Below are positions 27,909 through 28,918 of a stretch of 55,770 bases of DNA, one piece after another. The stretch is from positions 441,980-497,749 of the forward strand of contig CP070761.1 of the NCBI GenBank assembly GCA_020348985.1, read 5' to 3'. Both the position numbers and the translations under genes were made by a program. The DNA is from Candidatus Thorarchaeota archaeon. Its GTDB lineage: Archaea > Asgardarchaeota > Thorarchaeia > Thorarchaeales > Thorarchaeaceae. The notes below the pieces were generated by a model. That model did not search any database. It was not told where the DNA came from and saw only the letters and a list, made by a program, of their open reading frames with translations. The stretch's first letter is position 1. Each line of letters begins with the position of its first letter.

Positions 27909-27983
27909 GCGACCGTTGTCTAGGGGTTAGGATTCAGGCCTTCCAAGCCTGTGGCCCGGGTTCAATTCCCGGCGGTCGCACCA
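27909..27983 (+). tRNA. tRNA-Gly(TCC)
   Basis: GCGACCG acceptor, CAGGC-CT-TCC-AA-GCCTG, GGTTCAATTCC, encoded CCA. Confidence 0.95.
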
Positions 27984-28046
27984 TTCCAATCTTTTGTGTT
28001 TGCGCAGTATGCTGTACTTATAGCGTATCCAATGAAACGGCATTTC

Positions 28047-28895
28047 ATGACACTCGAGTATGAGTACTACGGAAAGTACGACGAGAAGGCATCGGGTGAC
28101 GTCAACCTGGAAGGTCAGATTCGTGATTTTCTGTTTTCCATGGAACTGATGTTTGATTACGTTGAGAGCACAAAGCCCGAGATTATGGACGCGTTTCTGG
28201 AGAAAATCGAGAGAAAGTACAGAAACGAGCTGGAAAACACCTCCTTTGTCTTAGAGAATGTGGGTTTCGATAGAATCGCTGAAGATCAAACTCTCCTCGA
28301 ATCCTATCCCCATTTCAAGGACCTCGGTTTGAGAATTATCATGAAGTACATTCCTCTAAGAGAGAGCTATGTATTGAGTGAGGAAGCAGAACGGATCAGA
28401 TGGATTGACTACTGTCGTGCCAAGTATAGGCTTCTGTATCACCGGATTACCACACTTGTCGAGATTCTCGGGAAAGAGCCTGGAATAGAGTACTACAAAG
28501 ATTTCGTTCAGTACTGGGGAGCGGAACTTGCAAAGAAGGGAAAGTCGTCGGTTAAGTATGAGGATGCCCGTGAGAACTACGTGAAGGCATGGAAAGAGGG
28601 CAATGCCATGGAATTTGGCGTGGTTGACATGTATGATGCGGCATTCTTGGCCAAATTTGACAGATGTGTCTCACATGAGTCCATGAAAGATGTGGATGAC
28701 CAAGAACTCGCATACTATGCTGTCTGCTATCCAGGGCCCAGACTCGGCGAGCACATCCACGAGAATGTCTCAATGAGGCGGTCCGTGACATTGTTCAGCG
28801 GCGACTTCTGTGACGAACTCAGGTGGGATAGACACGTTCATGATGAGCCTGACCAACCTTCTCATGAGTTCTCAAGAAGACTAGTTCCGAAGTGA
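28047..28895 (+). CDS. ATC-hydrolase-like (V4R-like) hypothetical protein
   Basis: C-terminal RC...YYAVC...RSVTLFSGDFCD pattern; start at ATG 28047 or 28032 (the listed 27951 start lies inside the tRNA). Confidence 0.6.
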   Translation: MTLEYEYYGKYDEKASGDVNLEGQIRDFLFSMELMFDYVESTKPEIMDAFLEKIERKYRNELENTSFVLENVGFDRIAEDQTLLESYPHFKDLGLRIIMKYIPLRESYVLSEEAERIRWIDYCRAKYRLLYHRITTLVEILGKEPGIEYYKDFVQYWGAELAKKGKSSVKYEDARENYVKAWKEGNAMEFGVVDMYDAAFLAKFDRCVSHESMKDVDDQELAYYAVCYPGPRLGEHIHENVSMRRSVTLFSGDFCDELRWDRHVHDEPDQPSHEFSRRLVPK

Positions 28896-28899
28896 TTAG

Positions 28900-28918
28900 A
28901 TTCCCGACGGCCGCACCA
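28900..28918 (+). repeat. Degenerate copy of tRNA-Gly(TCC) 3' end (att-like)
   Basis: ATTCCCGACGGCCGCACCA vs ATTCCCGGCGGTCGCACCA at 27965-27983 (17/19). Confidence 0.85.

Follow-up and report, generated by a model that had tools for sequence, protein, structure and literature searches.

A one-gene unit between two copies of a tRNA-Gly(TCC) 3' end in a Thorarchaeota genome, with empty and differently filled sites in relatives

Several described kinds of mobile DNA dock at tRNA genes or collect single genes. Islands inserted by tyrosine integrases at tRNA and transfer-messenger RNA (tmRNA) genes span 5–100 kb and carry their integrase, and larger elements integrate at tRNA sites in Asgard archaea as well (PMC8813620). 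Tycheposons of Prochlorococcus bring their own tyrosine or serine recombinase together with replication and packaging hallmarks (bioRxiv 10.1101/2020.12.28.424599), integrons gather cassettes at one attI site by means of the integrase IntI and folded attC palindromes, and in Caldiarchaeum subterraneum an element of about 1.8 kb, present in six copies, lies between a tRNA fragment and an intact tRNA and encodes a DNA recombinase (PMC3293823). Here we describe a smaller unit, at tRNA-Gly(TCC) on a stretch of 55,770 nucleotides (the window), which is one entire contig of a Thorarchaeota metagenome-assembled genome (MAG; our G000; GenBank assembly GCA_020348985.1, positions 441,980 to 497,749 of record CP070761.1). 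Between the tRNA and a second copy of its 3' end lies a single gene of the ATC_hydrolase family, with no integrase, and relatives have the same site either empty or filled with other genes. The literature searched yielded no account of arrays of integrase-less one-gene cassettes at Asgard tRNA genes.

The terminal 19 nt of tRNA-Gly(TCC) reappear 935 bp downstream on the same strand with two mismatches, and weaker similarity continues in register back to the start of the T-loop (19–20 of 24–25 positions; Table 1). Dinucleotide-preserving shuffles gave an expectation of 0.01 chance matches per window even with up to three mismatches allowed, and our own estimate for a same-strand match with at most two mismatches in the 1 kb past the tRNA is about 6e-6. 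The repeat is genuine, with a similarity that greatly exceeds the chance expectation. An earlier note on this DNA had reported the duplication, 935 bp on and 4 nt past the stop of an open reading frame (ORF), and both the coordinates and the shuffles agree with it. By hand comparison, the distal fragment matched the tRNA-Gly(TCC) allele of one relative (G006) at 22 of 25 positions and the adjoining resident gene at 20 of 25; it has C69, whereas the resident gene has a compensated A4-U69 pair. The tRNA-Gly(CCC) that the MAG has at another locus is likewise 17/19 identical to the fragment at its 3' end. The A at T-stem position 65 of the fragment is probably a private change; a scan of genome contigs for the exact variant returned only unrelated bacterial coding DNA. 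A permissive Rfam scan of positions 27000–36000 reported two tRNAs and zero fragments.

Two other origins of the fragment were considered and rejected. As part of a split tRNA, or of a tRNA with a giant intron, it would follow an upstream gene that is already complete and would mispair at 4-69 and 49-65. As a retro-element primer-binding site it should be complementary to the tRNA, yet it reads in the sense direction, and an untranscribed promoter forms part of the unit. As separate observations on glycine tRNAs, the acceptor stems of two of them look swapped in the MAG: tRNA-Gly(TCC) has GCGACCG/CGGTCGC, the tRNA-Gly(CCC) type in five relatives, and tRNA-Gly(CCC) (G000 56191–56289, minus strand, with a T-arm intron) has GCGGCCG/CGGCCGC, as in the displaced fragment. 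In a Promethearchaeota contig (L100, JBHLOP010000035.1), tRNA-Gly(TCC) contains a non-canonical T-loop intron at 58/59, the point where the tRNA similarity of the window fragment starts.

The ATC_hydrolase-family ORF is the sole gene between the two tail copies. Its stop codon (28893–28895) is separated from the distal fragment by 4 nt (TTAG) and about 30 nt lie between the tRNA and the promoter motif, the unit being tight on both sides; consistently with the earlier note, there is no room in it for an integrase, and none is present. Homologue length and the upstream motif make 28047 rather than 28032 the likely start codon. Homologues, mostly 281–283 amino acids long and 55–75% identical, occur in many Thor-, Hod- and other Asgard MAGs, and the motif TTGCG, about 11 nt, TTATA stands upstream of them in different genomes and in unrelated, tRNA-free contexts; positions 28000–28025 are thus read, from sequence, as the putative promoter of the gene itself. 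Twelve homologue contexts showed no tRNA and no tRNA-like site past the stop, only ordinary accessory neighbourhoods. The ATC family is therefore not generally cassette-borne, and the unit would be a normal gene that became cassette-borne together with its promoter. No hairpin was apparent by eye in the closing site, and the T-stem 5' strand is absent from the unit (sequence inspection only). The GC content of the island (46%, vs 48% for the window) is native, with no foreign signature. The cargo protein matched no NCBIfam model and no PDB relative in the searches made.

The ATC_hydrolase-like family has nine paralogues in the MAG, and the motif shared by its members suggests a common regulator site plus a TATA box. 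Two paralogues, one of them 62% identical to the cargo, lie directly 3' of tRNA-Leu(CAA) (G000 1836093–1838046), and 83 nt of the 5' side of this tRNA are in turn duplicated 1.27 kb upstream, with a membrane-protein gene enclosed.

The locus was then compared with its counterparts in relatives. The gene order S19e-rpr2-nep1 is common to 15 family genomes and is mostly followed by tRNA-Gly(TCC) and topoIB, a gene for a eukaryote-type topoisomerase IB. In six relatives (G010, G007, G015, G006, G012, and G016) the site is empty, topoIB lying 79–230 bp past the tRNA. In the MAG this distance is 3.25 kb and is taken up by the ATC unit followed by mscL, a gene for a corrinoid-binding protein, and one that is MtrH-like; in no relative examined did the tRNA–topoIB interval contain any of these four genes. 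With six relatives empty and five carrying other cargo, the ATC unit is, as the earlier note had proposed, an insertion and not a gene fixed at this site. That note had also drawn the locus as nep1, tRNA, and mscL with one island; relative to other genomes, however, the extra DNA continues past the repeat, and mscL is not the ancestral neighbour, a place that topoIB takes in relatives. No significant second tRNA fragment bounds the mscL–mtrH block. A candidate for an older fragment at 31155–31166, 73 nt before topoIB, was not accepted (shuffle p 0.07); its position agrees with the tRNA-to-topoIB distance of the empty sites.

Table 1. Features of the tRNA-Gly(TCC) locus, in window coordinates.
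Feature	Position	Strand	Basis
Intact tRNA-Gly(TCC), proposed docking site	27909..27983	+	ARAGORN; Rfam RF00005, 62.8 bits
Proximal repeat copy (T-loop 3' part, T-stem 3' strand, acceptor 3' strand, CCA)	27965..27983	+	Register alignment
Putative promoter region of the cargo gene (TTGCGC, ~11 nt, TTATAG TATA-like box)	28000..28025	+	Motif common to homologues
Cargo ATC_hydrolase-family gene, 282 aa from the second in-frame ATG (287 aa from 28032)	28047..28895	+	Pfam PF14196, E 4e-10
Distal tRNA 3' fragment, 17/19 to tRNA	28900..28918	+	Extended similarity from ~28894
nep1 (EMG1/NEP1 methyltransferase), conserved left neighbour	27139..27843	+	Pfam PF03587, E 2e-50
mscL (-), corrinoid B12-binding protein (+), MtrH-like methyltransferase (-)	28970..31033	mixed	Pfam
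Possible decayed older tRNA end and trailer, 11/12 to CCA and trailer (not accepted)	31155..31166	+	Shuffle p ~0.07
Eukaryote-type topoisomerase IB (topoIB), ancestral right neighbour	31231..33237	+	Pfam PF01028, PF02919; synteny, 13 relatives

Five other genomes carry different cargo at tRNA-Gly(TCC), closed in each by a tRNA 3' fragment. In G011, a tRNA-Gly(TCC) with a D-arm intron is followed by a short ORF, a gene for a 552-amino-acid leucine-rich-repeat protein, the fragment, and topoIB; the fragment begins 7 nt past the stop, matches at 21 of 24 positions ungapped with one mismatch over the last 16 nt, and has topoIB 112 bp on. The 552-amino-acid gene of the tRNA-Ser(GCT) island, considered as a possible counterpart of this cargo, proved unrelated on comparison. 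In G055, G065, G061, and G062, the tRNA is followed by one or two genes (BNR-repeat, esterase-like, or unknown) and then the fragment. Past it, topoIB follows in G055 and G061, the G065 sequence aligns to the topoIB region of G055, and the G062 contig has a 609-amino-acid ORF. Similarity to the tRNA begins in the T-loop in the MAG and in G011, and at the anticodon loop in the other four. The fragments are often other functional tRNA alleles with compensated stem differences, not decayed copies of the neighbouring gene.

A pair of genomes of the same genus provided a before-and-after comparison at another glycine tRNA. G044 and G075, 87–89% identical in their flanking DNA, differ by one 1.5-kb unit, which in G044 (a 360-amino-acid gene plus a 28-nt fragment) sits exactly between the 3' end of tRNA-Gly(GCC) and the gene that comes next in G075. 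Flanking homology resumes past the fragment, which is a foreign allele. New units therefore enter beside the tRNA and push older DNA outward.

The next conserved landmark past topoIB in the window is an intron-bearing tRNA-Gly(GCC) on the minus strand (35420–35524; Rfam 43 bits), which default ARAGORN missed and which, with introns allowed, it miscalled as tRNA-Ser(aga). In two relatives (L045 in G001, L047 in G014), the topoIB block is inverted between tRNA-Gly(TCC) and the opposite tRNA-Gly(GCC), the outcome expected from recombination between two similar tRNA 3' ends.

The arrangement recurs well beyond this tRNA. At least 11 small tRNA-bounded units (0.27–3.7 kb) are present in the MAG, with no recombinase in any. 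Eight of its tRNAs have a same-strand 3' fragment 0.8–3.7 kb downstream (Ser-GCT, His, Gly-TCC, Cys, Glu, Ala at a contig end, and two intron-bearing tRNAs), and three have a 5' fragment 0.27–2.6 kb upstream (Val, Glu, and Leu-CAA); about one quarter of the detected tRNAs bear units when these 5' versions are included. Where scanned with Pfam, the cargo was unrelated from unit to unit and again free of recombinases: NosD-type beta-helix proteins, an F420/luciferase-like oxidoreductase, DUF362, an opine-dehydrogenase-like gene with a B12-domain gene, and an unassigned membrane protein. The claim of the earlier note that the mechanism is genome-wide is thus borne out at no fewer than 11 loci and extends to the family; its further claim, that the mechanism acts in trans, is not, no enzyme having been identified. 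One of the 5' cases is in the window itself, where about 30 nt of leader and the first 19 nt of tRNA-Val(GAC) (40399–40475) are duplicated 272 bp upstream (40728–40747, minus strand, 19/20). With almost no cargo inside, this duplication is possibly a scar.

To extend the census to the family, we searched 61 genomes with a degenerate tRNA-Gly tail pattern, using the reversed pattern as a control. The pattern gave about three matches per genome, as three isoacceptors predict, and the reversed control gave none in the 61 genomes. Extra same-strand tails lay 0.55–3.8 kb apart in pairs and in arrays of up to five copies, with five tails in 5.7 kb on contig 10 of G055 and three in 1.3 kb in G076. 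Among the intervals at fetched loci, 16 of 20 held exactly one ORF of at least 90 amino acids; median non-coding DNA was about 190 bp, with no gene debris, and 11 ORFs were co-oriented with the tRNA against five in the opposite orientation. Fragment boundaries cluster at the T-arm/T-loop or at the anticodon loop. One of these arrays (L152, G055 contig 10, positions 1–8755) consists of four consecutive one-gene cassettes of mixed orientation behind tRNA-Gly(GCC), each closed by a tRNA 3' fragment; the genes encode an unknown 484-amino-acid protein, a NosD-like protein of 774 amino acids, a 150-amino-acid protein, and a DUF4145 protein of 223 amino acids.

We searched the MAG for known recombinases and found no match to Phage_integrase (PF00589), Phage_integr_3 (PF16795), Resolvase (PF00239), Cas1, or IS110 DEDD, all in a genome 86% complete, with matches in the control genomes. 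The MAG is a chain of about 131 contigs with 100-N spacers between them (5% contamination), and at that completeness and fragmentation the absence of a gene from the MAG alone is weak evidence. In the family, PF00589 is present in 16 of 41 genomes and absent from 25, several of the latter being 97–99% complete; two unit-bearing genomes, G011 (97% complete) and G044, are among the negatives. A XerA-type chromosome-dimer resolvase appears to be missing or unrecognisable in many Thorarchaeota. Moreover, neither an integrase nor gene debris was seen in about 35 tRNA-linked units inspected in the MAG and the family, and replication and packaging hallmark genes were absent from this unit and from the Pfam-scanned units of relatives. 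No split integrase halves flank the insert, its flanks being nep1/tRNA and mscL.

Larger elements were looked for in the same way. No integrase-bearing element occurred at any of about 20 tRNA-Gly loci inspected, and a large element of which the unit would be a deletion remnant, the finding that the earlier note named as speaking against its reading, was thus not seen at this tRNA in the relatives covered. The converse comparison, starting from integrases, covered 12 integrase loci of relatives: ARAGORN placed a tRNA at one only (an adjacent tRNA-Ser), there were no tRNA-end duplicates at the 12, and Rfam found no tRNA within 10 kb at any of the seven searched. Among IMG/VR viral contigs, the tRNA-Gly-tail pattern matched only unrelated tRNA-Arg elements of about 8 kb from low-GC organisms.

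Taken together, we tentatively read positions 27984–28918 as a gene-sized cassette moved by a site-specific enzyme acting in trans, an account that falls a little short of probable. The cassette, 0.93 kb long, would consist of a single ATC_hydrolase-family gene with its promoter in front and a tRNA-like 3' site behind. It would have entered as a small circle through one reciprocal (Campbell-type) crossover between the cassette site and the T-loop-to-CCA end of tRNA-Gly(TCC), which would rebuild a working tRNA and leave the other 3' copy on the far side of the insert. When an insert is flanked by a repeated part of its target and the target gene is regenerated, a single reciprocal crossover with a circle is indicated, and such a crossover explains both the 3' and the 5' versions. 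As the cassette holds no recombinase gene, the enzyme would have to act in trans; our preferred candidate is a site-specific, tyrosine-recombinase-like enzyme, which either a mobile element outside the sampled set or a host gene not recognised as such would supply. A site-specific recombinase is favoured by the interruption of the identity tracts by allele differences and by fragment boundaries at the T-arm/T-loop and the anticodon loop, the sublocations preferred by tyrosine integrases in the work of Williams (2002), as cited in PMC8813620.

Several observations weigh against this account. No enzyme was found; with the MAG 86% complete and in about 131 contigs, the recombinase or the element that bears it may be unbinned. 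The many tRNA anchors per genome are not explicable by a single classical integrase. Homologues of the ATC gene in other places give no sign of moving as cassettes. The island is in place in all contigs from four studies (one X1 contig covers 27934–29027 and one X4 contig the right junction), and no circle, island-skipping contig, or back-joint was found among them, although contigs cannot reveal rare variants and so do not bear on excision. Finally, the insertion may be ancient and immobile: the closest Nep1 in databases is 67% identical by homology search and an exact-protein look-up found no record of an identical one, so that there is no close strain for comparison and the insertion cannot be dated. 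The source names on homologues place the lineage in Thorarchaeota.

The main rival holds that an integrase-bearing virus, plasmid, or island inserted at tRNA-Gly(TCC) and was then deleted down to one useful gene, so that the unit as such would never have been mobile. Prokaryotes commonly have tRNA-flanked remnants that lack an integrase, and for archaea the idea of "gene capture" is well established. Tycheposon islands, with their scattered partial tRNAs and fragmented integrases, offer a precedent (bioRxiv 10.1101/2020.12.28.424599), tyrosine recombinases occur in 16/41 family genomes, and at the locus itself the two tail copies match at 17 of 19 positions and not in full, excision was not observed, and the base composition of the cargo is native. 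We nevertheless consider this origin unlikely, if worth serious weight. The ~35 units without integrase or debris, the one intact gene with normal spacers in 16 of 20 intervals, and the tightness of this unit on both sides all speak against decay, as do the integrase loci of relatives, which mostly lack a tRNA (Rfam 0/7; ARAGORN 1/12). The two mismatches, moreover, fit a different functional tRNA allele and not random decay. We prefer a cassette to a decayed element because the units are tight, debris-free, and one-gene, because they stack beside the tRNA, and because there are zero integrase remains.

Host recombination could also have done the work without any integrase, the circle popping out by homologous recombination at direct repeats and, after transfer, entering another genome by the same kind of recombination at a conserved tRNA 3' end, with tRNA tails being merely the best-conserved homology anchors between diverged lineages. 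The many anchors per genome (at least 11 tRNAs in the MAG, with 3' and 5' versions) and the lack of a known recombinase family, in the MAG and in several near-complete unit-bearing relatives, favour this route, and the inversions in G001 and G014, with tRNA-Gly genes in opposite orientation at their ends, show recombination between such sequences. Identity tracts of 19–34 nt, often split to 7–13 identical bases, are however a poor substrate for homologous recombination; the boundaries lie at tRNA loops and are not random; and the first acquisition of a tRNA fragment by a new gene is left unexplained. On balance we regard it as rather improbable. A last alternative needs no insertion mechanism, the fragment being a chance match or the trace of a tandem tRNA-Gly duplicate and the ATC gene having arrived independently. 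In its favour, the match is a mere 19 nt with two mismatches and fits the 3' end of tRNA-Gly(CCC) equally well (17/19), but the low chance expectation, the recurrence of the layout in five other genera at this tRNA and in the MAG at 10 further tRNAs, and the absence of tandem tRNA-Gly(TCC) genes from every relative examined make it very improbable indeed.

The question matters beyond one gene. Large Asgard genomes contain many accessory genes and many gained by horizontal transfer, whose entry routes are poorly understood, and this locus would be the smallest possible unit of one such route, a gene and its promoter docked at a tRNA tail. It is conceivable, if doubtful, that Thorarchaeota practise a general exchange of gene cassettes, in which single genes, each tagged with the tail of a conserved RNA gene and docked behind it, are shuffled between lineages by an enzyme unrelated to known integrases or by host recombination alone. 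If so, this would be an independently evolved analogue of integrons in the archaeal lineage nearest to eukaryotes, with the tRNA-Gly(TCC) unit as its minimal single-cassette form. If the units move although they encode no integrase, and perhaps with no known integrase involved at all, they would imply new gene-capture machinery and provide a handle for Asgard genetic tools; even as mere remnants, they document an unusually heavy use of tRNA sites. Annotators should be aware of the numerous tRNA fragments and intron-containing tRNAs in these genomes.

How, then, does the locus compare with the described systems? With tRNA- and tmRNA-targeted islands, as characterised in the classes of Williams (2002) and in the Islander database (PMC4383910), it shares a regenerated tRNA and a displaced 3' fragment as direct repeat; it is also like such islands in its T-loop or anticodon-loop junctions, presence/absence polymorphism, and accessory cargo. 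It differs in being one gene and 0.9 kb, with no integrase in the unit, the MAG, or the ~35 units, and in the use of about a quarter of the MAG's tRNAs, 5'-fragment versions included. Tycheposons resemble it in their stacked units with partial tRNAs between them, tRNA-proximal newcomers, and adaptive accessory cargo; none of their recombinases, hallmarks, or fragmented integrases was found here, and the host is an Asgard archaeon. The Caldiarchaeum element is alike in its position and in its population polymorphism, whereas the present units encode unrelated metabolic or surface proteins. In cis-mobilizable elements (CIMEs) and integrase-borrowing satellites, too, att-like sites stand on both sides, recombination genes are lacking, and an enzyme in trans is proposed. 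CIMEs are, however, defined by an integrase-bearing helper that shares the att site, and no helper was found among the relatives' integrase loci and IMG/VR, although unsampled elements may include one. The partitioned integrase of SSV-type "gene capture" differs in the integrase halves that flank the captured DNA.

The likeness to integrons and to CALINs (clusters of attC sites lacking integron integrases) lies in mostly one-ORF units, a site a few nt past the stop, arrays, anchor-proximal insertion, and diverse cargo. Here, though, IntI is absent (PF00589 was found neither in the MAG nor in the relatives' cassette arrays), the closing site duplicates a tRNA 3' end and is not a folded attC palindrome, the cassette appears to have its own promoter and orientation is mixed (11:5), whereas integron cassettes are mostly promoterless and co-oriented, and the anchors are many rather than one attI. 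The locus thus looks both like a tRNA island with tandem accretion, as in tycheposon islands, and like an integron cassette, yet it lacks what defines each of them (integrase, attC, hallmark modules). What it offers is a minimal case with one unit only, at a site that in other genera is clearly empty or occupied by different genes.

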